59,401 bases of DNA from a virus. The DNA lies in IMG/VR virus record IMGVR_UViG_3300045988_077504, positions 1 to 59,401 of that record; one strand, written 5' to 3'. Of this stretch, positions 12,827 through 56,821 are shown one piece after another; positions within the stretch are counted from its first letter, which is position 1, and each line of letters begins with the position of its first letter. The notes beneath the pieces were generated by a model. It saw nothing but the letters and a program-made list of their open reading frames with translations, searched no databases and was not told where the DNA came from. The position numbers were made by a program, and so were the translations under genes.

Positions 12827-12841
12827 CTAAGAAAAATCGTT

Positions 12842-13150
12842 ATGTCAGAAAAAATAAAAAGGTGCGAAGTGTGTGGGGAGGAAAAGCCACTATCAGAGTT
12901 CTCTAAATCATACAAGCATCGCTGTAAAAAATGTGTTGCAGAGGAAACAAGGTTCAAAAGACATGGGAATACAAACAAACCAGTACTTGCTATTCCAACA
13001 ATCGACTGGGAACAAAGACGGTATGAAATTGCAAAAGACATAGTGGCTTATTCATTCTCTACACCAATGCATGGTATGAGTATGGCTTCGTATATTCATA
13101 ACTGTGTAGAGGTAGCTGATATGTTGATTGAAGAACTTAAAATGAAGTAA
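12842..13150 (+). CDS. Zinc-ribbon protein, function unknown
   Basis: 102-aa ORF with CEVCGEEK...CKKC (two CxxC pairs) at the N-terminus. Confidence 0.55.
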   Translation: MSEKIKRCEVCGEEKPLSEFSKSYKHRCKKCVAEETRFKRHGNTNKPVLAIPTIDWEQRRYEIAKDIVAYSFSTPMHGMSMASYIHNCVEVADMLIEELKMK

Positions 13151-13152
13151 TT

Positions 13153-13276
13153 ATGACACGGGAGTATAAGTTTAGGAGGAAAGCGATTAGATAATGGCGA
13201 GTGGATATATGGATATCTCCATCGTTATTATAATGGCACATCCTTCATCGCAGAATATGATATGACAACTCGTTAA
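13153..13276 (+). pseudogene. Frameshifted and truncated YopX-like gene remnant
   Basis: The frame from the ATG at 13153 gives MTREYKFRRKAIR*. The +1 frame from 13184 continues RLDNGEWIYGYLHRYYNGTSFIAEYDMTTR*. Joined, they resemble the YopX N-terminus (..KFR..d.g.W.YG). There is no ATG in the second frame. Confidence 0.4.
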
Positions 13277-13349
13277 GTTAAAAAGGAAACTATCAAACAT
13301 GTTCCTTATGAAGTTGGCAAAAATGTTTAACAATATAAACTTATAAATT

Positions 13350-18441: not shown

Positions 18442-19017
18442 TTACCATTTTGCGATATTATAGTTAATGCCTATACCAATATATGGTTGTAGGCTGTTTT
18501 TACCAATACCATAGCCTACCTGCACCCCCAATCCCCAACGCTTCTCTTTGCTTTTGAAATAATGATTGATAACATTAGTCTTTTGGTATACAAAGATGCT
18601 ATCTACCTTTGGATTGTAGCCACTCACCCAAACTTTGTACGTGCTATCCTCATACATCTTTTGTGTTATTGGTATCACCACCTTAGCACTGTCAGGAGTA
18701 TTCTTAACACAACTATCAGATGGCATTATATAATTTCCGCCTAAAAATGTATTTTTTAGCATATAATTTTCAGCAGAATTTGTATTTCTGTCACTAACTG
18801 GGAGTGATACAGTATCAAACCTTAACACGGTACTGTCTTTTGGTACTGGCAAATAGTACGGTATTGTGTCTCGATAATGGATAGTATCTGTAACCTCGTT
18901 CATCTTCGGTGGAGGCAACTTGTAGTGTCGTAGGAAAATGTAAGCAAGAGAAATCACGCCAACAAACAATACTCCTACAGTCACTAATACGCTTGTTAAT
19001 TTACTCTTCTTTTTCAT
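18442..19017 (-). CDS. N-terminally membrane-anchored protein with an OMP-like C-terminal beta signature (possible lysis accessory or spanin analogue)
   Basis: 191 aa. TM helix LTSVLVTVGVLFVGVISLAYIFL. The C-terminus GLGVQVGYGIGKNSLQPYIGIGINYNIAKW has alternating residues and ends in an aromatic residue. It lies directly downstream of the endolysin. Confidence 0.6.
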   Translation of the reverse strand: MKKKSKLTSVLVTVGVLFVGVISLAYIFLRHYKLPPPKMNEVTDTIHYRDTIPYYLPVPKDSTVLRFDTVSLPVSDRNTNSAENYMLKNTFLGGNYIMPSDSCVKNTPDSAKVVIPITQKMYEDSTYKVWVSGYNPKVDSIFVYQKTNVINHYFKSKEKRWGLGVQVGYGIGKNSLQPYIGIGINYNIAKW

Positions 19018-19020: not shown

Positions 19021-19473
19021 CTAACTATTTTGAATGTCTGAATACTCTTCTTTTGCGTTGAAACATGGACATGCCTTAATATACTCGAAAGGTTCTATTT
19101 TGCCATTTCTGTTAAGGTCGGGTGAAAAGTCCCTATGCCCTTGAATGATAGCATTCGGATATTTTTTATGTAACATCTTCAATAAGATGCGCAAAGATTT
19201 CTTTTGCTCTGCAGTTCGATTATCAATAGGCTTTCCGTTACTATCAATACCACCGATATAGGCTACATTGATACTAATAGAGTTAAAGCCCTTAACACCA
19301 TTACTTACTTTATCTTCATCAAGCAGCTGTGTAATCTTGCCGTCTGGGCTGACTACGTAATGATAGCCTGGATTAACCCAGCCTTTTCGCTTGAACTCTT
19401 GCTTTAAGCCCTCAATCGTCTGTGACTGATGACTTGCGGTGCAATGAACCGCAATGTATTGTATATTTCTCAT
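19021..19473 (-). CDS. N-acetylmuramoyl-L-alanine amidase (endolysin, Amidase_2/PGRP type)
   Basis: IAVHCTAS...GWVNPGYHYVVSPDGKI...NSISINVAYIGG...IQGHRD...ACPCF is the T7-lysozyme-like amidase pattern. Confidence 0.9.
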   Translation of the reverse strand: MRNIQYIAVHCTASHQSQTIEGLKQEFKRKGWVNPGYHYVVSPDGKITQLLDEDKVSNGVKGFNSISINVAYIGGIDSNGKPIDNRTAEQKKSLRILLKMLHKKYPNAIIQGHRDFSPDLNRNGKIEPFEYIKACPCFNAKEEYSDIQNS

Positions 19474-19474
19474 C

Positions 19475-19702
19475 TTACTTCTCCCTTGTTAATTTTGCCA
19501 CTGCTGCCATACCTGCTGCTGCCCCTACGAGGTATGGATAAATCTTTATCCACCATTCTGGAGGTGTTGCTGCTGCTGCTGTCATAGCGGTATGAATAGC
19601 TACGGCTATAATACTGATACCTGAACTCAATACAACAATATTTTTAAAAAACTTCGGGGTTGTAGCCCTCCACCTCTCTGATAAAGTCTTAAATCGTTTC
19701 AA
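19475..19702 (-). CDS. Putative holin
   Basis: 75 aa with two hydrophobic helices (NIVVLSSGISIIAVAIHTAM, IYPYLVGAAAGMAAVA) and a basic C-terminus. It lies immediately upstream of the endolysin. Confidence 0.55.
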   Translation of the reverse strand: MKRFKTLSERWRATTPKFFKNIVVLSSGISIIAVAIHTAMTAAAATPPEWWIKIYPYLVGAAAGMAAVAKLTREK

Positions 19703-19968
19703 AATCCACCTCCTTTCGGCATACCTGGACGGTCCATTTTCACATCGTTAAGGTGCGTAACCTTAACATTTATCTCGTCTAGTTTAGCCTTAATCTCCTT
19801 CATATTGTCCTGCGCCTTTTGGTTATTCTCGTTATAGAGCAAGTGGTCGTTGTTCACTTGCACCTCCAATATAGAGATGCGAGAATTTAACTGCACCCAA
19901 GCACCTACAAAAGCGATAATAACTGTGCCTAATATGCCTAATAGCGTGTTTCGTATTCCTTTATCCAT
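19699..19968 (-). CDS. Membrane-anchored coiled-coil protein (antiholin-like or i-spanin-like)
   Basis: 89 aa. N-terminal TM helix LLGILGTVIIAFVGAWV followed by a heptad region. It overlaps the holin start by 4 nt. Confidence 0.5.
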   Translation of the reverse strand: MDKGIRNTLLGILGTVIIAFVGAWVQLNSRISILEVQVNNDHLLYNENNQKAQDNMKEIKAKLDEINVKVTHLNDVKMDRPGMPKGGGF

Positions 19969-30082: not shown

Positions 30083-31516
30083 TTATGCGTGAGCAAGTTT
30101 CATACGTGCGTGTGCCTTTGCATAGCGCAGATACAGACAACTTACCTCCTGAATGACAACAGCATCGGTTCTGCGAATACCTGCCTTTTGCAAGTCGAGT
30201 ACGTTACGTGCCCATGATACATGGACTTTCTTCGACAGATATTCCGGATCCATGGCAAAGCCGCAGTCGCTCATACCGTTCACATCGAATAACTCATGAT
30301 GAATGGTAAGCACCTCGCCGAAGTCGGTATCCCACGACTTGAATTTCAAGTTCCACACCTCTACAGTATCTTTCAGACGGAACTTTTCGCTCTTAATCTT
30401 AGAGAAAGCCGAAAGCATGTCGGAACCGCAGAGCAAAATCTTACGCTTGTTACCGATGCCAGTGCCTACAAACAAATCCTTAGTGATGTCTACAAGGTTA
30501 TCATCGGTAATTTCCGCACAATTCCTCGCAGTATTCCATGTACCTACTTCGATATCTTTTCCTGCCATCCACCAAATACCGCCGGTAAACCAAGTGTTCA
30601 TGCCCTCTTTGGCAACGTGCTTGATAACGTTCTTTACACCGAACAGATAAGTATTCTCCATGGCCAGACGCATGTCGTAAACACCGTCCTCCTCCAAGTC
30701 GGAGAAATTCCAGTTCACTTCCTTTGCGGCAATCTTGTCGAAAGTAGACTGCTCCACCTGTATCATGAAGTTCTGGCAATACTGCGTCTCGGGCATCGGA
30801 ATGTTGTTGAAACGGCCCGTCTGCACATCTAATTCGCCACAGGCTTTACCCATTCTTACAAGGGTAGTACCGCTCGGGATTTCAGGAACAAGGATAGGCT
30901 GCTTGCTCGATGTATCCATGGCACCGTTTACCGCATAGACGGTAGGAACGTTGGTTGAGCTGTCCTTGCCACACACACACAACACAAGGTCCGGAATATT
31001 GCTTCCGCTGTAAGCCTTACCGGTATTCGGGTCGGTAACACCCTTTACGCCTACCACTCGGATGGTGTCATCGAGTGTAAACATGTTGGTATCGCTGACA
31101 GGGAGCGAAGTACTTGCACCGCTTGTCATGGCGGTTACCTTTGCACTTGTGGTACACTTGATTTCACGCGTGCCGACACTGTAATACTTAACCTCAAACG
31201 AATTAGTATTGCTCGACTTGGCATAACGACTGATTTGGTCTACAGGAGTAGCCATTGGTCGAATTTTAACGATGCGCTGGTCTACATCGCTCATGTAGAA
31301 GTTGCCATCACCGTCAGTACGTCCCTGTGTTTCGGTAGCAATACCTGCGGTGCTCTGTTTACTTCCATCTCCCTCAGCTCCTGCGCTGGTCTTTCCTGCA
31401 TCGGGAAGTGCAGAGGCATCAGCCATAAGCACACCATTTGATGCACCCATCACAAATGCCAACACCGTCAGCATAATGCGATAAAGAAAACTTGAACTTT
31501 TTCGTAATGTTTTCAT
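30083..31516 (-). CDS. Putative major capsid protein
   Basis: 477 aa from M63 of the tracked ORF (cat at 31514..31516); the longer form would overlap the scaffold gene. It follows a scaffold-like gene and is followed by a strong hairpin. The N-terminus of this form is hydrophobic (FLYRIMLTVLAFVMGASNGVLMA). An alternative start is MADASALP at 31426. Confidence 0.6.
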   Translation of the reverse strand: MKTLRKSSSFLYRIMLTVLAFVMGASNGVLMADASALPDAGKTSAGAEGDGSKQSTAGIATETQGRTDGDGNFYMSDVDQRIVKIRPMATPVDQISRYAKSSNTNSFEVKYYSVGTREIKCTTSAKVTAMTSGASTSLPVSDTNMFTLDDTIRVVGVKGVTDPNTGKAYSGSNIPDLVLCVCGKDSSTNVPTVYAVNGAMDTSSKQPILVPEIPSGTTLVRMGKACGELDVQTGRFNNIPMPETQYCQNFMIQVEQSTFDKIAAKEVNWNFSDLEEDGVYDMRLAMENTYLFGVKNVIKHVAKEGMNTWFTGGIWWMAGKDIEVGTWNTARNCAEITDDNLVDITKDLFVGTGIGNKRKILLCGSDMLSAFSKIKSEKFRLKDTVEVWNLKFKSWDTDFGEVLTIHHELFDVNGMSDCGFAMDPEYLSKKVHVSWARNVLDLQKAGIRRTDAVVIQEVSCLYLRYAKAHARMKLAHA

Positions 31517-31556
31517 TGCTTTTGTTATTATGAAATTTATATATGAGTGATATTTG

Positions 31557-32345
31557 TTATCGGTTATAGGCTTTTCGTTTCTCACCTCCTCGTTCCCAAA
31601 TAGTTTGATTGCCATCGTACCGTCCAATGGCTCCAAGGTCTGGAAGTGGCTTCTGTGCCTTTCCGCCTCCATTCTTTCCATTGAGATTGGCAGTACCATC
31701 ATTACGTGAGGACTTTTTCAACTTCTCGTCAATCTTTGCGTTTCGTCCTCTTACCTCGCCCTCGTGTGCAGCTTCTTCGACGTTGGCATCATGGTTAATA
31801 GCTTTTGATGCCATTTCTATACTCTCACGTGAAAATTTGCCGAGGATACCATCTTTCATAATGTTTACAAGGAACTCCATAATTTGGTCTACCTCTTCAT
31901 CGCTCCAGCCTTTCTCTTCTTGAATTGCAGTAATGGTATCGTAAGTTTCGGAGATGTTTTTTTGATATTGTTCATCAAAGTCTTTCTCCTTAGCAACTCG
32001 CTCAGCATATTCTTGACTTGCCTTTGCAACTTCTTCTTGCTTTGCAGGGTCTTGAAGCTCCTCTACAAAGTCTTCTCCAAACATACGTACCAATTCAATG
32101 GCAGGATTACCACCCTTACGCCAATTGGTAAGGAAGGCTGCACTACGAGGGTCGCTCGTAAATAGGTCGGAAAAAGCCTTTTCTCTTTCCTGATACCCTG
32201 CTGCCTCTTTGTCATAATTATCGTAATCGTCATTGATTTGACCAAATAAAGTCTCATCATCATCAAATTGTCGGTCAGGATATTTATTTTTCATCCTTTC
32301 CGAAAACTTGTCTCGATTACTTCTAACTGTTGTACTATCAGCCAT
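31557..32345 (-). CDS. Putative scaffolding protein
   Basis: 262 aa, strongly acidic and helical (DDDETLFGQINDDYDNYDKEAAGYQEREKAF..., EEVAKASQEYAERVAKEKDFDEQYQK) with a basic tail. It is the first gene of its block, upstream of the capsid gene. Confidence 0.55.
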   Translation of the reverse strand: MADSTTVRSNRDKFSERMKNKYPDRQFDDDETLFGQINDDYDNYDKEAAGYQEREKAFSDLFTSDPRSAAFLTNWRKGGNPAIELVRMFGEDFVEELQDPAKQEEVAKASQEYAERVAKEKDFDEQYQKNISETYDTITAIQEEKGWSDEEVDQIMEFLVNIMKDGILGKFSRESIEMASKAINHDANVEEAAHEGEVRGRNAKIDEKLKKSSRNDGTANLNGKNGGGKAQKPLPDLGAIGRYDGNQTIWERGGEKRKAYNR

Positions 32346-32439
32346 AATCTTTTAAAATTTTATATTTTGATGATTGTTTTACTGCAAATATACATTGTAA
32401 ATTATTAGTTTTAGGTATAACTATTATTGTTTTTATTAG

Positions 32440-32447
32440 TAACTTTG
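32440..32447 (+). promoter_or_regulatory. Candidate TAnnTTTG -7 box for the packaging island
   Basis: TAACTTTG lies 20 nt upstream of the ATG at 32467, in the divergent gap 32346..32466. Confidence 0.3.
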
Positions 32448-32466
32448 GAACGCAGATAAGACAAAT

Positions 32467-32901
32467 ATGAAGAGACGAGGTTCTTTAATGGAGTATTCTC
32501 AAGAGCGCATTGAAAGTATAATGCGCATCTATGATGAATATATTTCATCATGTGAATACATCGACACATCTTATATTTGTAAACATATAGCTAATATGCC
32601 TGCACCACGTTTTTGGGTGTCAAGTATATGGGCAAGCAAGATGATGTATGCAATGTTTAAGGGAAGCCAGCTTAAAAATATGTTACCGTCTAAAAGAGAA
32701 ATGTTTCAAGAGATATTCAGACGAGTTAAGACTTTGCGAAAGCTGCACCCTAATTGGACAATAAAAAAATGTTGTGAGATTGTTGTAGAACAACCTGCTC
32801 CGAAGTTTTATCTTACAGCAGAAAGTATAGGAGTAATGATATGCAAGGAAAAGAAAAGACGTTTCGAAGAAAGAAAGAAAAGGCTACGTCATTGCTTTTA
32901 G
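32467..32901 (+). CDS. Hypothetical protein (small-terminase candidate by position only)
   Basis: 144-aa basic ORF, the first gene of the terminase-containing island. No motif recognised. Confidence 0.5.
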   Translation: MKRRGSLMEYSQERIESIMRIYDEYISSCEYIDTSYICKHIANMPAPRFWVSSIWASKMMYAMFKGSQLKNMLPSKREMFQEIFRRVKTLRKLHPNWTIKKCCEIVVEQPAPKFYLTAESIGVMICKEKKRRFEERKKRLRHCF

Positions 32902-33377
32902 CATTTGCAGTTATTGTACTTTCTTTGATAGGTTCCTCTAATTGGTACTCGATTGGTATCTATGCAGGAGGATCGTGGGTAGGGAGATTACTCTATCCTT
33001 TTTTTCATGCCAGTGTGGTGCATGCCTCACTTAATGCTTGGTGTTTTATATGCCTAATGTTTATCTATGACATAAAACTTACGAGGGTATTCGTAGCGTA
33101 TATTGTATCTGTAAGTTTTCCTATTGATACTTTATCATCCTTTATATCATTTCCACCTTTGCCAACGGTGGGAATGTCGGGTATTGTATTTTTTTTATTT
33201 GGTTCTATCTCCTTTGAAGTAAGAAAGAAACTTTACTACCAGTCGTGGATGCTGTTCTATCTTATTGTTGGTTTCTTCTTCCCCAACACTAATGCTTGGT
33301 TACATCTGTATTGTTATTTGTGTGGGGTCGTGTTTTCACTTCTTAACTATCCTATAACAATATGCAGAAAGAAGTAG
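32841..33377 (+). CDS. Rhomboid-family intramembrane serine protease
   Basis: 178 aa with about 6 TM helices. It has the HxxxxHxxxN motif (HASVVHASLN, H56 at 33006..33008 and N65 at 33033..33035), GxSG (GMSG, Ser113 at 33177..33179) and a late His (WLHLYCYLCG). It overlaps the upstream ORF by 61 nt and terL by 16 nt. Confidence 0.7.
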   Translation: MQGKEKTFRRKKEKATSLLLAFAVIVLSLIGSSNWYSIGIYAGGSWVGRLLYPFFHASVVHASLNAWCFICLMFIYDIKLTRVFVAYIVSVSFPIDTLSSFISFPPLPTVGMSGIVFFLFGSISFEVRKKLYYQSWMLFYLIVGFFFPNTNAWLHLYCYLCGVVFSLLNYPITICRKK

Positions 33378-35455
33378 TAAACATATTAAAGGAAAACAAC
33401 AAGCGCAATGCCGAGGTCTATCAGAAGTTCGACCCTATCAGTGGTATTGGCTCTATAGGGAAACGTACGGAAGTACATATTGATGATTTTCCTTTAGAGA
33501 CACAATACCTACCCGTCGAAATGCTTAATATTCCATTGGTTAAATTACTGATGAAATGCGGAAGTATCGAAAAGTTTCTAACTATTGAACTGGCGGTAGA
33601 GTATAGCGAGGAAGACCGTCTGAAAGTTATAGAACAATTCGTGCGCCTACGATGTAGGTATGATTTTGCATTTTGGGCTGCTATGTATGTGTACATCAAG
33701 AACAAAGGTGGTGGAGATGATGTTCTATTCCACCTGACACGTCCGCAGAGAAAGTTTATAGAACGTCTTGAAGCACTTCGCAAAGCCAACAAGCCTATAC
33801 GAATAGTGTTGTTAAAGGCTCGCCAGTGGGGTGGTTCTACAACTTCACAGCTGTATATGGCATGGTTACAACTCATTCATAAAGTCGGACTTAATTCTCT
33901 TATCATTGCTCATCAAGGTGCAGGTTCTGATGAAATCAAGGATATGTTCGACCGTATGATTAAGGCTTACCCTATATCTATGCTCTATAAGCTGGGGGAA
34001 ACATACAATGAGAACGAGTCTAAACTGGTAGGTGTAGGACATTCAGGCTCTATACATCGTGTACCACAACGTAATTGTAAGATAAAGATTGGTACTGCTG
34101 AACGCCCAGACTCTTGTCGTGGTGGAGATTACAACCTTGTGCATTTGTCCGAGGTTGGACTATGGAAGACTACTGACGGGAAAAAACCTGAAGATATTGT
34201 GCGTTCTGCCTGTTCGGGTATTTTGTTAAAGCCCTATACGATGATTGTTTATGAGAGTACAGCTAATGGTACGGGAAACTTCTTCCAACGTGAATACGAT
34301 GCAGCAAAGCGTGGAACTTCACAGTTTGAAGCTATGTTTGTATCTTGGTTTGATATTGAACAGTATTCTTTACCATTTGAAAATGATGATGAAAAAGCAG
34401 ACTTCGCTATATGGCTTTGGAAAAATAAAAACAACGCAACACCATCTTCTGCACGTGCGGAAAGTGGTAGGTATCTTTGGTGGCTTTGGCAGAAGGGTGC
34501 AACTTTGGAAGCTATCAATTGGTATGTACAAGAACGTGCGAAGTACAACGAACACGCACCAATGGCTTCTGAATATCCATCTGATGATGTTGAGGCTTTT
34601 GTTCATTCAGGTGAACGTGTATTCGATAAGTATAAGGTTGATACTTTCCGAACTTCATGTAAACCTCCTAAGCTAATTGGTGATGTTTATGCTGATGAAG
34701 ATGAAGGTAAGAATGCTTTGAAGAACCTGCGCTTTACAGAAGACTCACAAGGGCTTCTGTGGGTATGGGATTTGCCTGAAATAGACGATAAGGAAATTGT
34801 AACCAATAGATACGTTACTATTGTTGATATTGGTGGACGTTCTAAAAAAGCAGACTGGTCTGTAATATTGGTAATCGACCGCCTTTTCATGATGGACGGT
34901 GGTAGACCGCAAGTAGTAGCGCAGTGGTATGGACATATTGATATGGATATACTTGCATGGAAAGCTGCACAGATAGCTGCGTTCTATGACAACTCCCTGT
35001 TGGTAATCGAGAGCAACACGCTTGAAACGCACGACAAGGAGCGTTCTGTTGATGGTGATTTGTCTCACTTCATCCTCAATCAGATTAAAGACGTTTATCC
35101 TAACCTCTATGCACGCAAGCAGACGGAAGATGAGATACGAGAGGGTATTCCTCGCAAATACGGCTTCCATACAAATGTATCCACCAAGCCAATGATTATA
35201 TCAACGCTTATCAAGGTAGTGCGTGAACATCTATACATAGAACGTGATGAGCGTTGCTTAGATGAATATGTGGTATATGAGAAGAAACAGAACGGTGCAT
35301 TTGGAGCTATCATAGGCAAGCATGACGACTTATTAATGACACGTGCTATTGGTTTACATATTTGTTTCTACGAAATGCCTATACCAACAATTGTTCTGCG
35401 TGTCAATAGAATAATGCCAAAGAAAAAAAAAGCAGTATCTGCTGCCACCATATAA
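33362..35455 (+). CDS. terL: Terminase large subunit
   Basis: 697 aa. The ATPase has a Walker-A-like LLKARQWGGSTT, and the C-terminal RNase-H-like nuclease has VTIVDIGGRSKKADWSVILVID and GKHDDLLMTRAIG. Confidence 0.85.
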   Translation: MQKEVVNILKENNKRNAEVYQKFDPISGIGSIGKRTEVHIDDFPLETQYLPVEMLNIPLVKLLMKCGSIEKFLTIELAVEYSEEDRLKVIEQFVRLRCRYDFAFWAAMYVYIKNKGGGDDVLFHLTRPQRKFIERLEALRKANKPIRIVLLKARQWGGSTTSQLYMAWLQLIHKVGLNSLIIAHQGAGSDEIKDMFDRMIKAYPISMLYKLGETYNENESKLVGVGHSGSIHRVPQRNCKIKIGTAERPDSCRGGDYNLVHLSEVGLWKTTDGKKPEDIVRSACSGILLKPYTMIVYESTANGTGNFFQREYDAAKRGTSQFEAMFVSWFDIEQYSLPFENDDEKADFAIWLWKNKNNATPSSARAESGRYLWWLWQKGATLEAINWYVQERAKYNEHAPMASEYPSDDVEAFVHSGERVFDKYKVDTFRTSCKPPKLIGDVYADEDEGKNALKNLRFTEDSQGLLWVWDLPEIDDKEIVTNRYVTIVDIGGRSKKADWSVILVIDRLFMMDGGRPQVVAQWYGHIDMDILAWKAAQIAAFYDNSLLVIESNTLETHDKERSVDGDLSHFILNQIKDVYPNLYARKQTEDEIREGIPRKYGFHTNVSTKPMIISTLIKVVREHLYIERDERCLDEYVVYEKKQNGAFGAIIGKHDDLLMTRAIGLHICFYEMPIPTIVLRVNRIMPKKKKAVSAATI

Positions 35456-35937: not shown

Positions 35938-37938
35938 TTATGATGCGATTGCTTGGTGTAATTGGTTTACAGCTTGCATATTCGCTCCCTGCTGCGCCTG
36001 TTGCATGATTTCAGGAGAAACGCCCTGCGGTGTCTGCCCCTGCTGCACTTGCTCTTTCTGTGATTGTATGCTCTGCAACAATTCGTCCGCAAATGGGAAA
36101 TTACCATGTTCAAGTAACTGTTCCACGCTGATGGCATTTGCTTGCCATAACTGCATCAATACATCATTTGCAAGCTGACGATAAGCAGGAGTTGTTGTGC
36201 TTTCTGTTATCGACAAGTCAAACTCAACGTCTCTAATCTTCTTTGGGTCATATTCAATTTGTGCGCCTGCCTTACCAGCAATGTTGAATACTCGCTTGCC
36301 ATCATAGAACTGTTGAATATTCTTTACGTCTTTGTAGGCACCATCGACAACGAAATACGAGAAACATTCCAACATGTCAAGAAGAGACATTGTAGCGTTT
36401 TGCGTTTCTTGGTTGTACTTAGCTGCACTTGTGCCAGCATACCCAGGCTTACCCTGCAAAGCTCCATTCACACCTGATATATCCTCGAAGAATTTGAGCT
36501 GCAAATTAAGTAGTTCGGTTATACCTATATTTGTAGAGTTATTAGCTACCTGATGGGGGATTTGACCGCTTTTTGATGGCTTGAAGACAATAACACCATT
36601 AAACTCTGCCCAACTCTCTGCAATATCTTCCATGCTTACTCCATCAGGTAAACTATCCTCAGGCATAAGCAATACACCTTTGGCACTGGCACGCATAATC
36701 CAGTCGTAAAGAGTGATAAGACGATTTGTGTATCGCTGCTGGTCTATCACATCTGCCACAAACGAATGTATCTCTCCATCAATAAATGGATATGCCTTGA
36801 ACACGTACGGATGGCTACCATGTTCAAAAGGAGTTTCTCCCTCTTTCAGAATATCACCGAATGGAGAAAGGTAGTAGAAATACCAATAATCGTCCATAAA
36901 CCAAGTAGCTTTGACAAGTGGTACTTCTTCTGGTGGCATCCCTGTAGCCTCAGCCATTTGCATACGCTGTGCATTGACCAAAGTAACCTCTTTCTCAAAA
37001 TCTTCTTCCTCAATCTTGTATATATCGCCATTTTGATAATCATGACATCGGTAGCGAGGCTTTTGTTCTTTGCGCCATACTTCGATTACTCTACATCGAC
37101 CAGGCTCACTTGTAAATAGGAAATCGTAATTATTAAGCCTGCTGTAACCAAAACGTTCTGCATAATTGGCAAGAAATTCTTTGCGTGCTGCCCATTTGTA
37201 AATATCTTTTAGCTTTTGATAGTCTTTGGGAGACTCGGCAAACTGCTCACACAATTGTCCAAAGCTCACATCGTGAACCTCTCCTAAACAACTAACATCC
37301 CAACCTCTGAAATCTCTCATATTGTTATCTATGAAGAAATTGTTTGGCTGAACATAGTCCGTCCAACAATCTTCCTTACCATTGCGCCAGCCATAACTCT
37401 TACGATGTACAATAAAGCCTGATATAAGAAACTCTTCCATAGTACGTGCAAAGACTTCATTCATTCGATTAAGCTGCATATTGCATTGTAAAATGGTAGA
37501 CATTGTTTCTCCCAGTTTCTGTTCGTCTCTGTCCCGTGCGGTGCAAGTCGGCTCTTTCGACTGGGAACGGTAAACCCCCAACACATTACGCACAAGCCTA
37601 CGAATAAGATTGTTTTTTAGAGGAACATTACCTTGCTGCTTAATATATTCTTCCTCTGTCATAGATTTACCATCTACACATATCATATCGTCCCATTGGC
37701 TTCCGTATGTATAACGCTTGTTACGTTGTCTATCCTTTCTAAATTGCTCCATTTGGTTCCAGTAATGCTGCGCTTCCATAAGAATATCAAAAGCCCTGCG
37801 ACTGCCAAAGTTATGCGAACGAAAAGAAACTGTATCCATTTCTTCTCTATCTGCCTTTGGCGCAATCTGGCTCATCGGTAGTAATTTTTCGTTTTTCTTT
37901 GTAACTGTATGCATATCTTCTTGTTTTAGGTGGCACAA
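35938..37938 (-). CDS. Putative portal protein
   Basis: 666-aa ORF. The size and its position beside the terminase island and directly downstream of the ejection/polyvalent genes suggest a portal. It has a Gln-rich C-terminal tail. No diagnostic motif could be read, so the call rests on context. Confidence 0.5.
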   Translation of the reverse strand: MCHLKQEDMHTVTKKNEKLLPMSQIAPKADREEMDTVSFRSHNFGSRRAFDILMEAQHYWNQMEQFRKDRQRNKRYTYGSQWDDMICVDGKSMTEEEYIKQQGNVPLKNNLIRRLVRNVLGVYRSQSKEPTCTARDRDEQKLGETMSTILQCNMQLNRMNEVFARTMEEFLISGFIVHRKSYGWRNGKEDCWTDYVQPNNFFIDNNMRDFRGWDVSCLGEVHDVSFGQLCEQFAESPKDYQKLKDIYKWAARKEFLANYAERFGYSRLNNYDFLFTSEPGRCRVIEVWRKEQKPRYRCHDYQNGDIYKIEEEDFEKEVTLVNAQRMQMAEATGMPPEEVPLVKATWFMDDYWYFYYLSPFGDILKEGETPFEHGSHPYVFKAYPFIDGEIHSFVADVIDQQRYTNRLITLYDWIMRASAKGVLLMPEDSLPDGVSMEDIAESWAEFNGVIVFKPSKSGQIPHQVANNSTNIGITELLNLQLKFFEDISGVNGALQGKPGYAGTSAAKYNQETQNATMSLLDMLECFSYFVVDGAYKDVKNIQQFYDGKRVFNIAGKAGAQIEYDPKKIRDVEFDLSITESTTTPAYRQLANDVLMQLWQANAISVEQLLEHGNFPFADELLQSIQSQKEQVQQGQTPQGVSPEIMQQAQQGANMQAVNQLHQAIAS

Positions 37939-37971: not shown

Positions 37972-40900
37972 CTATTTACGTGTAGCATTCATCTCCTCAA
38001 TCATCTGCTTTTTCAATGCTGTAAGTTCATTATCGATAACCTTACGTTCGTCATCGTCTGTTGCCTCTTTCATTTCAGCATAGAGACCGTCAATTTCTTT
38101 GTTATAGTCCTCGAAAATCTCATAGCGTGCATATTCAAGAGAGTTATAGAGGAAGTCAATCTTCTCGGCATAGTCAAAAACACCATTATCTGTGTCTTTT
38201 TCGTAATGCTTTATCCTTGCCTTTAGCTTGTCATGTTCCTCTTTTGCTCGGTAGTACTCGTTGTTAATGGCACGCGACTCTGTACGTTCGTCTCCATTCT
38301 TCAAAATTCTATTGAGTACCAAGAAACTTCTTGGGTCATATTCTCTTTGCCCTGCAATAGTCTCCGCACTCTTAGTAAGTTTGTCGATAGTATTAGAGAC
38401 ACCACCGAAATAACCATTAAGAATGTATTCAATCTTTGCAGGATTGAGGTCAATCGCCCCCTTTGTGTAAGCATCGCCTCTAGTTGCTTCATTGAGCAGC
38501 TTTGATAATCCTAAAAGGTATTTGTTAGCACTCTTGTAAGCCTTTGTCCATTCTGGCATATCTTTATTATAAGGAGTGTCTTTATAGATAGGCATACCCG
38601 TCCAACTCTTATTGGTATAAACTTCAGCAAATGGTTTTGCTGCACTTGGTATAAACGCTTTCAAACCTCCTTCACCCTCTAAGAAATCTATAGGAAGAAT
38701 CTGTGTAGCCTGACCAGCAATGGCTCTGCCGAGTTCTTCGTTGGTGAAATGTTCCTTACCACTCATTGCGCTAACCATTAACTCGCCCATGCCATATATA
38801 GCACGGTATTCTGTAGGTAATGGTATAGATACCCATTGGTCGCCAGCCTTAAACAAGATATTGCTACGTCTTACATATTCAGGTAAGTTCCAATAACTAT
38901 TCTTGTTGTCATCGTCGCCGTCTCCCATACCCATTCCTGCTACCAAAGCACCGAGTATGAACATCGTTGCTGCTGCCGTAAATGCTTTTGCAGGGTATTT
39001 CTTGAATTGTCTGCCAAAGTTTGTTGTTCCTTGTATGGCTGCATTCCAGAATACAAAGCCACTACGTCCAAGTCCTGAAAGGAAAGCACTTGTATTGCCA
39101 AGTTTCGTCTGACCAACTGCTCCCATAAACTTTGCGCCACTGCCTTTCTTATTGAAATTCACAGAGATTTCCTTTGCATCATAGATAGAACGGTCTATTG
39201 TTCTTCCCATTTCTCGTGATGTGAGGAATGCTGCAAAACGTGCGCTGTTCTCAACGGCACGGTTGTACTCGTCCAATCTCTCTCCAAGCAAATTGATAGC
39301 CTTTGTTATACCAAGCTTGCCATTAGCACGCTTCAACTCTCTGCGAATGTCGTTCTTATGCTGCTCTATATCTCTCATATTGGCATAACCAGTTTCGCCA
39401 CCATTCATCATAAATTGATAGAATGAACGTTCGAGGTCGTTATCCATATTGAGCTTACCGTTTATATGCTTAGTAAGAAGTATCTTTACCTGTACCGGAT
39501 TGCATCTTCCAATGTTACGATGGAATCGCAACGCATAGTTTGGACTCTCCTTTACCCATACCATTGAGTTAGCATAAAGCATATCTCGAATGAAGTTCGA
39601 CACAACAAAATCAGGGTTACGTGTTGTATAGAATGCGCTCAACTGTCTATTTACCATTTCGCCAACTTTTAAAATAGCACCGATAGGACCTGAATTGTCA
39701 TTATCAGGATTAGTTTGTCCGTTAAGGGCTTGTGCTGCTCTTGGGTTGCCGTTAATAGTCAAGACATAATCTCTACCACCACGTTTAACAAGAACCTGAT
39801 GCTGCTTCAAATCCCTACTTTCTACGACACGATATGGTACATTGATGGTATCCTTGCCATGCTTATACTTTTCGGGTTCTTTCTCTGCGAGTTCTTCCAT
39901 ACGTGCCTCAAAGTCTTGCAGCTTCTTTTCAATATCATCTGCTGAGTCTGTGTCTTCTATGTTATTAGGGAAGACTGGTTTCCACTCATCGGTTACATCG
40001 TCATACTTCAACCATAAATCACTCACACTAACAAGGTCGCTTGGGTGGTTAAGAGCAAAGTTTAAGAATTTCTGCTTTACCAGTTTATTCCTATTACCTT
40101 GTGTTATCGCACTTTCTGCCATACTTTGCATGTTTGCAAATGGGTCATCTGCTTTTGAAGTACGACCCCTTGCAACCTTAATCGGAGCATTAAAAGCACT
40201 TTGACGATGAGTAAGGTATGCGTATGCTTCGCCACTTGTCTTTTCATCAAAGCCACGAAGTGGAATGTAAAACTGATACATACTCTTTATTTTATCGTAT
40301 GTATCCTTATTCATCATACCGCACTCATAACTTTTTGATAGAGTGGCATTCGTAACATCGTTTACCTTTTTCCATAACGCTGTTGTATCATTGTTCTGCT
40401 CGTAATCTGCAACCATTCTTCCAGCCTCCGCTTCTGCGTCTTCCACAGTATCTGTTCCTGTTAAGGCAGTGAGACCTGCATAATCACGCTGTCGAGCATC
40501 TGCAAGATAATCATCGAAACTTTTCGTACTATTAGGGTGTGCCTGTTCATTTGCTTTGAACGCCTCAGTAGCATCACGTTCCGCCATAACCTCGTTACGC
40601 TCCAAACCATGTTTTGCCATCATATAATCAACAAGCTCTACACACTCTTGCTCATTCTTTGAAAGCTTAGCAACCTCATCAAGCATTGGCTTAAAAACAA
40701 GGTGTGCAAAAGCATCTGCCTCAGCCTTATTGACAGAAGATAATCTATTTTCTCCTAAATAGGCATTCTCAAACCCTGCTATATCTGCAATATCCGTTTT
40801 CGTACCTTCCGCTTTCAGCACTGCCTCCATAGCCTCTTTGAGTCCAAGCATACTATCCTGCAAAGCCTCCTGAGTTTGGAACATTGCTCTGCTTACACGA

Positions 40901-43900
40901 TGCTCATAAATATCACGAGCGTCAACGCTATCCTCTCCCTCACGGAACAAAACATCATCTTCCTCAACATTTTCTTCCGAAATATTTGGATTCTCAAAAT
41001 CTTTCACTATATTTGCAACAGAAATGAGTTTCTTTCTAACGTCCGCGGAATTGTACTGCGGTTTAGATAGAAGCTCATTTTTCGTTTCTTCTATCCAACT
41101 ATTACGAAAATCTTCACTCATATAATCAGCAAGACCGTCATTAATCCAACCAATAATATTCATACTATTGCGATAATGAACACTACGTACACTATTAACG
41201 AATATTCTACCAGCCTTACGGTTAGTTTCGATAGCTACAACATAATTACGACCACCATGTTTAAGGTTTGTAAGAATAACATTACTACCAATATGAGTTG
41301 CACTTCTAAAGACTGCAAATGGATTTTGAATCGCATTAGGCAAGTCTTTGACCTCATTCAAATCAAATGGATGATTTTCCTGCATTGATTTATCTGACAA
41401 TCTGCTTGCAACAAGTTCGATAGGAAGATTAGGAATACCAGTACTTAAAAGAATACTGCTCGGCATTCCCAAATCATAAACATAACCTTTTGGCAATGTT
41501 CCGTCAATCTGTTGTTGCAAAGCATCATTAAACCGCTCATTCACCTCGTCAAATCCAACAGAAGCCTCTGCAACCTCGTCCGACGTTACCTCTGTCTGCT
41601 CTGCATAATTACCCACCTTTAACTCATACTGCTTTGCCACATCTTCCGCTTCTCCTAAGATACTGCGGTATCTTCCTGGCTCTTTTAGGTTCTGATAGCT
41701 GCGCCAAAGGATATAGCGAAGTTCGTTATCACTCAACTCGCCTCCTTGCCAGTTTTCAAAACCAATAGAGTGGAGTAGCTTCATAAATAGTTGTTTAATC
41801 TTTGTCCAGAAACTATAAGGCATGCGCTCAAAGTCGGTTTGCTCTGCAAGTGATGCAAGGTATTCCTCTGTCGCTGTGCGGAAGTCCCAGCCGTTCTTGG
41901 TTGCAAGTTTTACAATTTCACGTCTAATCTCAGGCTCTGCATTTTGGTAAACATTATCAAGGAATGTATCGAAATGGTCGCCAAAGAGTTTGCGCAAGCC
42001 ATAATGTGCTACAGCTTCGTGTAATAAAGTTTTTTCTACATCTGCTATATTGGCATGATTAGGGATAACTATAGTTATCTTACCTGTACTCTTTGAGTAG
42101 AAACCTTTAGCGTTTGCACGCTTACCGTCTAACTGGCTGGCATCTGTAACCACTTCTACATTGTCAAGATGTAATGTGTCTGCAAGCTCCCCTACACGAT
42201 TAGTCATTCTACTACGTTCACGTTCGGCAAATGCTGCACGTTGCTTGGCTGTACGGTTAGACTTACCCATCATTTTTGCCCAAGGGTCGTTGATGAAACT
42301 CAACTCATCATCGGTTAATGTTCCCTGACCATCACGCATAAGGTATTCTTCGTCTTCTGATGCTTCAGAAAGAGTAGAAACAGCCTCAACATCTTTATCC
42401 ATTTCGGCATACTTCTTTTCTTTTTCCTCCATCTCCTGTTTCATCAGCTCGGTGTATTCCTCGTATTTCGCCTTAGCTTCTTCAAGTTCTTTTTCGAATT
42501 CAAAAGGCTTACCCTCTCTTGCTTGCATCTGCTCAAGTTCGGATTTATGGCGAGCTATGTTCTGCTCTGCATATCCAACGATATTCTCGAAATCATTACC
42601 ATTAATAACATTTTCGGTAATATCCTCAATAGCATTGCGAAGCAAGCCATTCTTTACAGGTACATCTGTAAGACCTAATTCCTTTTGAGAATACAACATC
42701 TTACGTGTAGCCTTAGTAAATATGTTGATGCCCTGCGATGTTGTTTCCTTAGCAACTTCTGTGCGCACAACAAAATCTAAGCCGTCAATATTTACGTTGA
42801 GGTTACTCGTGTATGAGGCATTTGCACTATCCTTAACCTTTTCGCCCTCGTCTTTGACCTTTTTGTTATGCTCCTTAAAGAAGTCTGCCATAGCTTCTAC
42901 ACTGTCAAACTTCTGCTTGCCGATGGTAATAGTCTTGAACGTGCCATCAGGATAAGTTTTGCGTACAAGAGAAAGGTTCTTTTCATTTGTGTCCTTACGC
43001 TCCTGCTCCTGCTTTATCTGACCGTTAAGACGTGGTTTTGCGTTATGGATATACGTTTGGTCGGCTTCCCACTGACGCTTTCTGCTCTCAAACTTACGTG
43101 CATTCTTCTCGGCTTGATTTTTCAGCATAGCATACTCGCTTCCTGAAAGTTGTGCTACGGTGTCTCCAAAAGCATCTTCTTCCTCTTCGAGAATACGGTT
43201 CTCCATACTGTTTGCCATAAGCTGCTTGCCGTTCATAATACTGTCTGCAATAGCACCTTTGGTTTTCAAACGCTGATATGCAGTAACATCAAGACTGTCT
43301 TCAACGCCAAAACGAAGCACACGTACAGGCTTATTCATTTCCTTGTGAATATTGCCTTGTCTTAGAATACGTCCGTTACGCTGTGTGTAGTCCATAGGTC
43401 GGTTTGGTGCATCAAGATGTATAAGTGTATGCAAGCGTTCCTGAATATTCACACCAGTACCGAGGGTGAATGTACTACCCATGATAACACGAACCTCCCC
43501 ACGATTTACCTTGTCAAAGATTTCAAGTTTCTTCTTCACAGTCATTCCCGACTTCATTACAATAATCTGCTTCTCTGGAACACCTGCCTTGATAAGTTTC
43601 TCTCTAACATCTTCGTATAGATTGAAACCGCTCGTCTTATTCTGATAGTTATCTGCAAAGATAGCAATAGTACCCTTATAGTCTGCCGTTTCTTTCAGAG
43701 TACGCAATGTTTGGCGCACAGCCTCATTGGTTTTGCTGTTAGCATCATCTTCTGCACTTGCATCAACCAAACGGGCATCCACGGCTGCTGCTTTGGCAAT
43801 ACCATACATAGTAAGTGGAATATGAGAATTCTCTTTCTTCTCCTTGCCACTCATATTGTCGTACTTTTCAAGCTCGCCCTTTACAAACTTCATAATACCA

Positions 43901-46900
43901 CGTAAAGCCTTTGTCTGTGACAGATAAAGGTCTTGTGCCTTTCCTGTCTCCATTTCAGGTATCTTATCGCTCACACCTCCTGCATCCTTTGTGCGAACAG
44001 TATCAGACACACTTGACCAAATACGCACGAGTTCAGGCAAGTCAATGTAACCTGCAAAACGGTTATTCTCTTTGAATTTGCCACTGGTGGTAAATTCCAA
44101 CATCTGTTGGATATTACCGAAGTTGCGCACGAAGTCATCAAAGTAGTAGATACCATAGTCTTTCATTGTGTCGGCTGGCATCAGATAACGCATGAAAGTC
44201 CATATCTCTGCTGCTGTATTACTGATAGGAGTACCAGTAGCAAAGATAACATTACGTCCATGGTTCTTTTGCAATACGGCTTGTGTCTTCAAATAAACAC
44301 CTTGCGACTTCTTTGAATACGATGGGTCTACACCCTTAACGCCACGCTGCATAGCTGTAGCAAATCCGAGGTGCTTGTATTCGTGAGCCTCATCAACGAG
44401 TAGGGCGTCAATACCCATATCGTCAAAGTTTTCCGTATCGTCTGTTCTTCGGTCGAGCATTTCACGTGCCTTTACCTCTGTATTCTGCTTAGTAACTGCA
44501 CGCTTCTTCTCATCTTTTGCTGTACGCTTATCTGCGAGTTGTCCAGAGATAGATGCAAGCTCGTCTTCCAACTGTTGGATTTCTTTTTCTGCCTGTCGAG
44601 TAATAGGGTTGCGCTCTGAGTCATCAGCTTCTTTCATTTTTTCAAGAACAAGCATCTTCTCCTCTATCTTGTCTTTAATGAAAGCCATCTGACGCTCTTC
44701 GCTATCAGGAATAAACTCAAAGGTGGATTGAGGAACGACTATCATATCCCAATCGTTGTAACGTATCTTGGCATAGAAATTCTTTCTACCCTCTGCGCTA
44801 CGGTCGCTATCCTCCAATGTGAGTATCTTTGCATTAGGATATAATTGCTTTGCACTGGCAACAAACTGACCAACGGTAGCATTCTGTACTACAATCATAG
44901 GCTTATGGGCTGTTCCCAGTCTGCGCATTTCCATTGCCGTTGAAATGAGAGTAAAGGTCTTACCTGTTCCTACCTCATGGGCAAGCATCAAAGGTTGCAT
45001 AGTGCCACGTACTACCGCCTTTGCCTGATGAGGGCGAAGGGTAATACTGTGTGTTGCACTTCCAAAATGTTCTGGGATATATTCAGAAGGAATATCAACA
45101 GGGACATAGTTATTGAAGAGGTCGTTGTAAACGGCTTCCATTCTTTCGGACATTGCAGGGTCGCTCTGCATCTTATTTCTTGCCCAATCCTTGAAGTCCT
45201 GACGGATTTCATCAATCTTAGATGCACAAGCCTGTGTAGCCTCCTTGTCTGTTATAGTCTCTGTGGAACCATCGTAATGTTTTTGTACCCTTGAAACTGA
45301 AACGGTCTTATTTTGGATAGCAGCCTCGATAAGTTTATGCCCATAGATATACTCATTGAATACCTCACTATGTACACCGCTAGTGCGGTTCTTGTCGTTA
45401 TTCAATCCCCAATCTGGTGCTTTCATGAACCATGTACCACCTGCTGCCGTAAACTTTACGTCAATATCAGTCTTTTCCTTTACAAATTCGTTATAAAGCT
45501 CAGGAGCAATCCATGATGAACCGAGGTTGAATTCAATAAGGTGTGCAGGGATGCTGTTAGGAACTACCTCCTTAAGAGCCTTGATGTTGCCATTATAAGT
45601 TCCATTTTCATTATTAGCCTCTGCCTGTTTCAGTTTTTCTCTGACATTACCGCTAAGGTATTGATAAGAAACGACTACCTGTTTGCTCGTTGGGTCTTCA
45701 AAGCCTAAGCCACAGCTAATGATTTCTTCTTTCACATCGTCCTCACTCATGCTAAGTTGTGTACTGATGTAAGGAATATCAATTTTACCAGTCTTATAAA
45801 TGCTAACAATAATACCGTCTTTTACGTTCTTAGGTTGAGGCTCAACGTCTTTCTCTATAACACGTTTGCCAAACACATCAGTCTTACTGAATTTCTGCAC
45901 ACGCTTTCCATCCTTGTCTCCAGTTTCCTCATATCTTTCAAGTGAGAATACATTAGGATAATCAACATCATTGCGCAAGAAAGCAATAGAAACATTCTTG
46001 TTAAGGTGTCCGTAAGTATTAACAAAGTCATCATAAACCTTGTTGAGTTCGTCAAGTAAAGGCTGTAACCCCTTATCGTCTTCATTCTCCGACTGATAAT
46101 GCAATACATCATCTAAGGCTTTTTTAATAGCAGTATAAGCCTTAAAGCATTCTTCCTTTGTGTGTCCTTTTACCTTATTTGTATTCAAATCAAGTGGAAC
46201 GGCTTGTCCCAGTTGAGCAACACAAAGCTTACCGTCCTTGTTGATAAGCATACTTCCCTCCTTGACATCATCGCCAAGCGCTTCATATACATTGACAGGC
46301 TTTTCCTCTTTCTTTGCCTGTGATTCGTCTTTCATGTGAGCAAAAGAGTTCACGAAATCTTGCAACATCTTCTCTTGTTGCTTATCACTGGTTGGATAAA
46401 GTCCTTTTGAGGTAGCACGATAGGTATCGCCATGCTCGAAAGCAAACTCCATCTTACCTGCCATCATTTCAGGGTGTTCAATGAAATACTTATTATAATC
46501 CATTGACAAATGTTTGATAACAGGAACATACGTGCCTTTTACCTTCTTTTCTTTCCCAGTATTATAATCAACGCTGCGCTCACCTGTTACAGTGCTAACA
46601 TCAATAGCATTAGGAGAAACCTTGCCACCTACACGCTTTCTGATAACAATAATATCAGATGTTACACCAGTACCGCCAAAGGTTTTGTTGTTGAGGCGGA
46701 ATGCTCCGATAATATCGGCATTACCATCGCTAACCAGCCAATCACGCAACTTCTGCGAGCTGTCAAGTGTACCATTTGAAGATATAAAGATGCCGATACC
46801 ACCATCACGCAATTTGCGGACATTCTTTGCAATACAGAAATCGTGAATGTTGTGGAACTTCTTTGACAGGTCGCTATCTCCTGTTGTGTCATTCACACGA

Positions 46901-56341: not shown

Positions 56342-56821
56342 TTAGAAAGGAAAAGAACCAGCTGCACTACTTACACCTTGTACTGCTTGCCCAATTGCCT
56401 CTGCTTTTCCTTTTTCGATTTGGTTCAACTGTTCATTTAGTGCTGCATCACGCTCCCTATACTGTCCTTCGATAGCATCTTTGCGCTGCTCTCCATTAAC
56501 GGCTATCGTTGCAGTAGCATCAGCAAGAGCCTTATTGTTGGCTTCTTTGGCAGCTGCCGTACTCTCGTCAGTTCCACCCATTACTGCTTGCGCTCCTGCT
56601 GCTGCCTTATTACGGTTCTTGATATTCTCTTGTGTCAATGTAAGAATACGCTGCGCATCAGCACGCTGTGTTGCGTCCTCATTATATCGCCTATCGTACC
56701 AATCTTGATTTGCTTTTTTCTGCGCCTCTACATTGGCTTTCATCTTCTTCATAGCCTTTGAAGCAGAGATACCACCAAATATGCTACCTACTGCTCCAAT
56801 TGCTGTTCCAATTAGTCCCAT
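56342..56821 (-). CDS. Small virion-associated protein with an N-terminal glycine-zipper membrane helix
   Basis: 159 aa. MGLIGTAIGAVGSIFGGISASKAM followed by an Ala/Gln-rich helical region. It is the first gene of the late block. Confidence 0.65.
   Translation of the reverse strand: MGLIGTAIGAVGSIFGGISASKAMKKMKANVEAQKKANQDWYDRRYNEDATQRADAQRILTLTQENIKNRNKAAAGAQAVMGGTDESTAAAKEANNKALADATATIAVNGEQRKDAIEGQYRERDAALNEQLNQIEKGKAEAIGQAVQGVSSAAGSFPF

Follow-up and report, generated by a model that had tools for sequence, protein, structure and literature searches.

The rhomboid gene and its locus

The stretch of DNA analysed here, called the window below, is the IMG/VR virus record IMGVR_UViG_3300045988_077504 at its full length of 59,401 nucleotides, and its source is a temperate, podovirus-like gut phage of Bacteroidales. 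It contains an open reading frame (ORF) of 178 residues that very probably encodes an active rhomboid intramembrane protease, and we describe this ORF together with the genes around it: a small ORF of 144 residues, the large terminase gene (terL) and, divergently oriented, the genes of a scaffold-like protein and the major capsid protein (Table 1). The closest cultured relatives are the Bacteroides phages BS-TP4 and BKO1-TP3 (rhomboid 52–54% and capsid protein 84% identical), and BF1-TP2 is a cultured relative at greater distance. These Bacteroides phages have been described as temperate gut phages, with BS-TP4 detected in 31% of 930 viromes, in a report that does not mention the rhomboid (PMC12694917).

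An earlier reading of the letters alone (the original prediction) had proposed a six-helix rhomboid that overlaps both of its neighbours. The ORF is present as described; it starts with ATG and shares 61 nt with the upstream 144-residue ORF and 16 nt with terL. The motifs HASVVHASLN, GMSG and HLYCYLCG also lie in the places and in the order proposed. The Pfam Rhomboid domain (PF01694) matches residues 46–165 (E = 1.9e-5) at 25.3 bits, where the gathering cutoff is 22.6; this is marginal for a single sequence, and the same match is precomputed for most members of the protein's family. The AlphaFold2 (AF2) model, calculated from a 45-sequence alignment, has a predicted local distance difference test score (pLDDT) of 89 and a predicted template modelling score (pTM) of 0.86, with helices at residues 2–30, 46–54/59–75, 80–91, 113–122, 130–144 and 152–168. 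When this model is compared with the PDB by Foldseek, GlpG and iRhom chains make up all of the first 37 matches (TM-scores of 0.5–0.64, probability 1.0), and Der1 is also among the matches. In a profile alignment by hhalign with Escherichia coli GlpG, FHASVVHASLN pairs with MHFSLMHILFN, VGMSG with GGLSG and LHLYCYLCG with AHIAGLAVG. The GlpG-like fold that had been proposed is thus borne out, and the rhomboid resemblance is real and not due to chance. Sequence searches of the PDB, with the single protein or with a family profile, gave no matches.

The distribution of charged residues defines the predicted orientation in the membrane. Fifteen lysine or arginine residues lie on the N-terminus, the loops between transmembrane helices (TM) 2 and 3 and TM4 and 5, and the C-terminus, versus a single one on loops L1, L3 and L5. 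This indicates the canonical topology with a cytoplasmic N-terminus (N-in), so the active site should face the periplasm.

The identification as a rhomboid is not new, because databases already annotate the family in this way. A 95% identical protein cluster carries the name 'rhomboid family intramembrane serine protease [Prevotella bivia]', and other clusters of the family are named 'GlpG-like protein [Caudoviricetes sp.]'. The exact protein occurs in 27 blocks of public assemblies, on contigs of up to 114 kb. PHROGs v4 contains no family that matches the rhomboid ORF, unlike four of its neighbours, for which the families are strong (phrog_27246, phrog_22323, phrog_26635 and phrog_22658). That clustering may have overlooked the rhomboid or kept it as a singleton, perhaps because the gene overlaps both adjacent ones.

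Table 1. Positions of the rhomboid gene, its motifs, its neighbours and other features in the window
Feature	Position (nt)	Strand	Description
Rhomboid-family intramembrane serine protease gene	32841..33377	+	178 aa; minimal six-TM core, predicted N-in; PF01694, AF2, Foldseek
TM2 motif HASVVHASLN	33006..33035	+	Residues 56–65; H56, H61, N65, oxyanion-hole region; pairs with GlpG MHFSLMHILFN
TM4 motif GMSG	33171..33182	+	Residues 111–114; putative nucleophile Ser113; pairs with GlpG GLSG
TM6 motif HLYCYLCG	33303..33326	+	Residues 155–162; putative general base His155, packing Gly162; pairs with GlpG AHIAGLAVG
Small ORF preceding and overlapping the rhomboid	32467..32901	+	144 aa, soluble; phrog_27246
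Divergent intergenic region	32346..32466	.	121 nt, between the scaffold/capsid and small-ORF/rhomboid/terL operons
Acidic scaffold-like protein	31557..32345	-	262 aa, upstream of the capsid gene; phrog_22323; position kept in all phage lineages
Major capsid protein	30083..31516	-	477 aa; HK97 fold, SU10_MCP/DUF5309 family; PF17236, 109 bits
Capsid residues 1–32	31421..31516	-	Basic n-region and hydrophobic helix ending GASNGVLMA; signal/anchor-like; candidate rhomboid substrate
Capsid residues 33–74	31295..31420	-	Acidic, Gly/Thr/Ala-rich disordered linker; length and sequence vary between lineages
Large terminase (terL)	33362..35455	+	697 aa; phrog_2 and other terminase PHROGs; 16-nt overlap with the rhomboid stop
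P22-type portal	35938–37914		PF16510
T7 gp14-like internal virion protein	56342..56821	-	159 aa; PF24072 (T7_gp14), 23.5 bits, below the cutoff of 27
CI-like repressor	2236–2637
Integrase	57648–59129	-	Supports a temperate lifestyle

Conservation of the rhomboid and its gene neighbours

A protein search with the rhomboid returned 146 clusters at 90% identity, and 189 rhomboid loci were confirmed in IMG/VR. For comparison we used a set of 108 sequences, made up of 80 IMG/VR loci, three GenBank phages, ten metagenomic contigs reached via distant capsid proteins, 13 more IMG/VR loci and the window, in which rhomboid ORFs were called by a hidden Markov model search. A rhomboid ORF is found in 101 of these sequences (66 of them unique); the seven that lack it are all chromosomal islands, and no phage is among them. 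Residues F54, H56, H61, N65, P108, G111, S113, G121 and H155 are invariant in all 101 proteins, and G162 is conserved in 100. Position 114 varies between glycine, alanine and serine. In the WR motif of the very short L1 loop, the tryptophan is replaced by glycine and the arginine is kept in 82 of the 101 proteins, with histidine in 18. The invariance of the catalytic residues extends to lineages with a rhomboid just 20–27% identical to that of the window. The rhomboid evolves under purifying selection with dN/dS values of 0.10–0.18; terL, scaffold and capsid genes are held more tightly, at 0.03–0.07. Taken together, the invariant catalytic residues and the purifying selection argue that this is a core gene rather than a moron, and that its product is probably a working protease and not a pseudoenzyme. 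A pseudoprotease identity was rejected on the same invariance at all 101 loci. We are highly confident that the gene belongs to the core of the head and packaging module. What is new here is that the rhomboid is, across the compared sequences, a universal and catalytically intact core gene of a large clade of gut phages.

All members of the lineage to which the window belongs have the gene order small ORF, rhomboid, terL. The original prediction had taken the overlaps as a sign of fixed co-expression with the packaging genes and had proposed a survey of rhomboid–terL synteny. This synteny turned out to be lineage-specific: in loci L085 and L087 and in most of L095–L107, terL lies 7–8 kb away, past tail and lysis genes, which rules out adjacency to terL as the defining linkage. 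In these same distant lineages, the small ORF and the rhomboid stay paired; they lie immediately upstream of the scaffold and capsid genes and are transcribed divergently from them. Since the pair stays in place where terL has moved, the conserved unit is the small ORF and the rhomboid beside the scaffold and capsid genes. This linkage is seen in 80 IMG/VR loci, three cultured Bacteroides phages, four metagenomic lineages and 13 further loci, the capsid proteins of which are merely 27–34% identical. The proposed co-transcription with packaging and head genes is supported, and constant adjacency to terL is not. Also new is that the conserved partners of the rhomboid are a small helix-turn-helix (HTH)-like protein and the scaffold/capsid operon rather than terL. 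Among the loci examined, we found no conserved linkage of the rhomboid to lysis, repressor or integrase genes. Homologues of TerL itself are present in 318 phage records.

The small ORF has a homologue in all seven divergent lineages and in the 13 further loci, and it always lies in front of the rhomboid, overlapping it and translationally coupled to it. It has no hydrophobic segment, and a motif PAPxF[WY]xS/T of a type common in HTH proteins, duplicated at residues ~45–54 and ~109–120, suggests a duplicated HTH. Against the PDB, the search gave nothing but a non-significant match to a sigma-4-like HTH protein (E = 0.39). The protein may be a small terminase (TerS) or a late regulator, and it is the sole small-terminase candidate seen. 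For the 262-residue protein on the other strand, we infer the scaffold role from its position and composition. The intergenic region between the two operons contains one copy of the Bacteroides -7 element TAnnTTTG per strand in the right orientation, at 32385–32392 (-) and 32440–32447 (+), an arrangement that is consistent with divergent late promoters. However, the element is not enriched in the window (62 matches versus 57 expected from shuffles), and its presence is therefore weak support for promoters.

The capsid protein and its N-terminal segment

The major capsid protein is composed of three parts in its AF2 model: an N-terminal helix at residues 10–22, a stretch with pLDDT below 50 at residues 25–74 and a confident body from residue ~75. 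The best Foldseek match is the capsid protein of Vibrio phage VP1 (E = 8e-22), and those of crAss001, SU10 and HK97 are also matched. The N-terminus pointed out in the original prediction, FLYRIMLTVLAFVMGASNGVLMA followed by DASALP, is present, and the longer form of the protein to which it belongs proves to be real. In all 40 unique variants, the conserved frame opens with MK..KK at Met 31516 (MKTLRKSSS... in the window), and the sequence 5' of this codon is unrelated between lineages. The downstream Met 31426 was rejected as the start, since it is replaced by threonine or valine or is absent in several lineages (L031, L061, L099–L101 and P0271). The constant opening at Met 31516, together with this replacement, shows that the long form is the real product. 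A 539-residue ORF (30083–31702) was likewise discarded as a candidate for the capsid gene, since the 62 codons that it adds in front of Met 31516 (31517–31702) run into the end of the scaffold gene and show no conservation. Gene callers disagree on identical contigs and give 463, 477 or 510 residues for the capsid protein.

The N-terminal segment is in frame in all phage lineages, every rhomboid-bearing phage included. The same design is found in BF1-TP2, with a capsid protein at 47% identity, and in capsid proteins of 27–34% identity, in which the segment closes with the motif G-[IV]-x-D-[AG]-x-x-[MV]-T-A-[DE]-V. In the wider capsid family (P0121–P0270), 101 of 119 full-length representatives from clustering at 50% have the segment (~85%), with a low-complexity linker behind it, and the others start right at the conserved body. 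Close pairs of proteins with and without the segment exist, the short form starting just before 'GGxH..PLTT' of the body. Thus, the N-terminal segment behaves as a separable module that resembles a pro-sequence. The charges that flank its hydrophobic core average +2.8 lysine or arginine residues before the core and 2.5 aspartate or glutamate residues after it, and this pattern holds in 99 of the 101 representatives. Such flanks predict an N-in/C-out helix, like a Sec signal peptide or a type II anchor, which would place the capsid body outside the cytoplasm. A signal-anchor-like segment is unexpected on a cytoplasmic capsid protein, and we found no description of a leader on SU10/DUF5309 capsid proteins in the literature. 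A further new observation is that the capsid protein of these phages and of most of the family begins with a signal-anchor-like module.

Among phages of the capsid family, none was found without the segment; all capsid proteins lacking it that could be placed are encoded in four-gene chromosomal islands. The islands L090, L091, L093 and L094 (positions 10001–13300 of each), L092, L086 and L088 lie in Bacteroidales chromosomes and are flanked by housekeeping genes. Their genes encode a capsid homologue, a protein of ~170–190 residues and a truncated P22-portal-like protein (430–460 residues), and no terminase, tail or rhomboid gene is nearby. One island capsid protein is found in 463 blocks of the collection, so the islands are very widespread. 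They could be domesticated capsid genes, a nanocompartment or satellites.

A possible role in capsid processing

We propose a role for the rhomboid that connects these two proteins. The enzyme would be a minimal six-TM rhomboid with a cytoplasmic N-terminus and a Ser113/His155 site open to the periplasmic side. Its gene would be a core late gene, expressed from the divergent promoter region that also serves the scaffold and capsid genes, and would be translationally coupled to that of the small HTH-like protein and, in this lineage, also to terL. The most likely job of the enzyme, we infer, would be to clip a late phage protein with a hydrophobic helix rich in small residues. The best candidate would be the N-terminal propeptide of the capsid protein, cut at or near its closing motif (..GASNGVLMA/DA.., with the slash at the putative cut). 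With this cut, the HK97 body would come free of the membrane-associated helix, together with its flexible linker, and the rhomboid would thereby replace the prohead protease that is missing from these phages. As a whole, this is the best explanation we can offer, and we offer it tentatively, with well below an even chance of being right. That the capsid propeptide is the substrate is possible, though we would not call it probable. No hypothesis that agrees with the linkage is more specific than the original prediction, in which membrane-tethered precursors are released by the rhomboid during assembly; in view of the conflicting topology and of the islands without a rhomboid, both described below, we hold it to be doubtful. 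More doubtful still is the full sequence of events in which the N-terminal helix keeps capsid subunits at the inner membrane as head assembly begins and the rhomboid is the maturation protease that releases them.

Several observations are in favour of capsid cleavage. First, the rhomboid and the capsid segment are co-inherited in the sampled phages, perfectly in both directions (101 of 101 loci), and their genes stay neighbours across deep divergence and rearrangement. Second, the capsid module closes with a conserved small-residue motif just before the flexible linker of ~50 residues, and the closing site has a conserved small P1 residue (alanine), followed by aspartate or glutamate and then alanine or valine. 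Third, no HK97-, ClpP- or S49-type prohead protease was detected by Pfam profile search of the scanned ORFs of the window, as the original prediction had noticed. No protease Pfam domain at all was found in the 40 proteins or segments scanned, which include the giant proteins of 2671 and 5701 residues and leave nine ORFs below ~105 residues unscanned; the window may lack ~5 kb of the genome, which bears on this absence. Fourth, the rhomboid shows no conserved linkage to genes of lysis or lysogeny.

Other observations weigh against it. P22- and T7-type podoviruses with a separate scaffold protein normally have no maturation protease, so its absence here is weak evidence. The islands L086, L088 and L092 keep the hydrophobic segment of the capsid protein with no rhomboid within 10 kb, and the segment can therefore exist without a rhomboid encoded in cis. 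These three could be satellites that use the enzyme of a helper, or a host rhomboid could be used, or cutting could be unneeded. Moreover, the rhomboid diverges faster than the capsid protein (52% versus 84% identity between the window and its cultured relatives), common descent could be partly behind the kept gene order, and the support for capsid cleavage is comparative throughout. The major difficulty is the polarity of the helix. Rhomboid substrates normally have a single TM helix of type I/III, with the N-terminus in the periplasm and, close to the outer end of the helix, a P4/P1/P2' motif, and the substrate prediction of Strisovsky et al. was confined to type I/III proteins (PMC2941825). 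In contrast, the capsid helix is predicted to be N-in in 99 of 101 representatives, opposite to these canonical N-out substrates, and falls outside that description. Cleavage of a type II protein is conceivable only if the motif lies on a flexible stretch that loops back into the active site (PMC2941825). The ~50-residue linker of the capsid protein would permit such looping back; however, the compartment problem remains. If capsid cleavage is true, the rhomboid would be the first intramembrane protease known in virion morphogenesis, and the leader on ~85% of the capsid family would be a membrane-targeting pro-sequence with unconventional topology or handling.

Alternatively, the rhomboid may act late on inner-membrane proteins of the host, for example a defence effector, a component of the translocon or of quality control, or a lysis-timing factor, and its placement in the head operon would then merely give late expression. 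Orphan subunits of complexes are an example of the host membrane proteins that bacterial rhomboids are known to cut (PMC7232013). The rhomboid and its small partner diverge faster than the structural genes, as is common for genes of host interaction, and a host target avoids the polarity problem of the capsid helix. Nevertheless, the rhomboid is a strict core gene at 101 of 101 loci, it keeps its place by the scaffold and capsid genes though terL and the portal gene move, and linkage to lysis, repressor or integrase genes is never seen. This explanation also names no candidate host target, and we consider it rather unlikely.

The substrate could instead be another virion protein with an N-out helix, namely the 159-residue gp14-like protein or the 5701-residue protein, inserted in the membrane of the producer cell and trimmed or extracted before packaging. 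The N-terminus of the 159-residue protein to which the original prediction had drawn attention, MGLIGTAIGAVGSIFGGISASKAM, is present. It forms an uncharged helix rich in glycine, alanine and serine that is followed by the basic stretch KAMKKMK, which gives the N-out polarity of TatA. This polarity fits canonical substrates and recalls the cleavage of TatA by AarA (PMC2941825; PMC3712462). The weak match of this protein to T7_gp14 and the single hydrophobic helix of the 5701-residue protein, near residue 5366, are in keeping with the same idea. On the other hand, a hydrophobic N-terminus is a family trait of T7 gp14-like proteins, gp14 of T7 included, and T7 is not known to encode a rhomboid; this feature of the 159-residue protein therefore needs none. 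A homologue of the 159-residue protein was detected just in the two closest cultured phages and not in BF1-TP2, and both genes lie 20 kb from the rhomboid with no conserved linkage. In addition, a cut close to the periplasmic end of the helix would remove little of it. Altogether, we find this explanation clearly unlikely.

A third explanation, which we regard as very unlikely, is that the rhomboid fold serves the capsid N-terminus without proteolysis, as a dock, a chaperone or a membrane-thinning factor similar to derlins and iRhoms. The superfamily does include non-catalytic binders of client proteins, with iRhom and Der1 among the Foldseek matches, and the orientation problem would be bypassed, but no catalytic or oxyanion-hole residue varies among the 101 loci, even at 20% identity, which is unexpected for a pseudoprotease. 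Least likely of all is a moron or lysogenic-conversion gene, acting for example in superinfection exclusion or in modification of the host envelope: the phage is temperate, with an integrase and a CI-like repressor (PMC12694917), and the 'rhomboid membrane protein' of Stenotrophomonas phage DLP5 was suggested to be a moron (PMC5834331), but morons are patchy, lie at module borders and have their own signals, whereas this rhomboid is universal in the clade and overlaps both of its late-operon neighbours without a promoter of its own.

To our knowledge, physiological substrates have been established for few bacterial rhomboids and for no viral one. Here, a core phage rhomboid is tied genetically to the scaffold and capsid genes in a clade that is reported to be common in human guts, and just one candidate substrate stands out, a very unusual one: the capsid protein, which starts with a segment resembling a signal anchor. 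Because three relatives are available in culture together with their hosts, the question is directly testable. If the rhomboid does cut the capsid protein, it would represent a new class of capsid maturation enzyme and provide a defined pair of rhomboid and substrate. If it does not, a Sec-like leader on an HK97 capsid and the target of a late rhomboid still need explaining. Should the link hold, it would be a surprise for specialists in both phage assembly and rhomboids.

Other genes of the window

The 159-residue protein is encoded in an operon near the portal gene, together with a protein of 415 residues rich in proline, lysine and glutamate (55084–56331, -) and the 5701-residue protein. 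The latter (37972–55077, -) is a polyvalent protein with InPase, ddrB-ParB, MuF_C, SNF2 helicase, LPD14 and LPD38 domains. This operon looks like a T7-style ejection set fused to anti-defence and takeover domains.

Further genes encode RecT, an SNF2 helicase and an amidase with a DUF6808 partner. The DUF6808 protein (18442–19017, -) has an N-terminal TM helix and adjoins the amidase; in L085, the DUF6808 protein (19432–19902) lies directly upstream of terL with a 7-nt overlap. It may be a spanin- or holin-associated lysis protein. The lysis cassette is 13 kb from the rhomboid in the window and lies beyond the tail genes in L085 and L087.

Near the CI-like repressor, small ORFs (348–2201, -; 2954–3181, +; 12264–12791, +) encode proteins that are lipoprotein-like (…VSSC, …LASC) or have two or three hydrophobic helices, and these are plausible envelope or exclusion genes expressed in lysogeny. 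Lastly, the intergenic region upstream of the integrase gene contains, at 57355–57557, an array of ~160 bp made of ~10-bp repeats with a consensus near GCAAACGTAT, followed by six ATGAGA hexamers. The repeats may be binding sites for a regulator or a recombination protein.

Comparison with known systems

The phage rhomboid shares with GlpG of E. coli and Haemophilus influenzae (MEROPS S54, PF01694) the six-TM core, with a TM-score of about 0.6 and a probability of 1.0 in Foldseek, and the predicted N-in topology with the active site toward the periplasm. The HxxxxHxxxN motif of TM2, the GxSx motif of TM4 and the H...G motif of TM6 align residue by residue. Unlike GlpG, however, it lacks the cytoplasmic N-domain and has a far shorter L1 loop, in which GR, or H in distant lineages, is what is left of the WR motif. 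The two proteins are just 13–17% identical, and the phage enzyme is encoded within a head and packaging operon. Rhombosortase (TIGR03902) is similar in its minimal size and is the best NCBIfam match, and a rhombosortase-annotated phage protein is among the structural neighbours in BFVD. Nevertheless, the match scores 23 bits against a cutoff of 84, below the level of an equivalog, and a hydrophobicity scan of the window found no protein of the GlyGly-CTERM type (C-terminal Gly-Gly, TM helix and basic tail). BFVD contains a handful of other viral proteins with the rhomboid fold, and annotations as rhomboid or GlpG-like occur elsewhere in uncultured Podoviridae and Siphoviridae, in giant viruses, in phage DLP5 and for gp8 of BS-TP4. 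In the papers searched, we found no report on the function of a phage rhomboid, nor of its linkage to scaffold and capsid genes.

For the removal of an N-terminal pro-segment, the closest mechanistic model by analogy would be AarA of Providencia stuartii acting on TatA, in which the rhomboid activates its target through removal of a short N-terminal piece at a small-residue motif (PMC2941825; PMC3712462). The two cases differ in that TatA is N-out and loses eight residues, whereas the capsid segment is predicted to be N-in and comprises a full hydrophobic helix.

Finally, the prohead proteases (HK97 gp4 of family S78/U35, the ClpP-like S14 enzymes, lambda C of S49 and T4 gp21 of S77/S21) are also products of head-module genes, and the role proposed here, the removal of an N-terminal pro-segment of the capsid protein, would be the same. 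The relationship between lambda C and SppA, a membrane signal-peptide peptidase, sets a precedent for the recruitment of envelope proteases. However, the canonical prohead proteases are soluble and packaged inside the prohead, whereas the phage rhomboid is membrane-embedded. Such an enzyme is barred from the prohead, and processing by it would thus have to occur at the membrane, before or during assembly.

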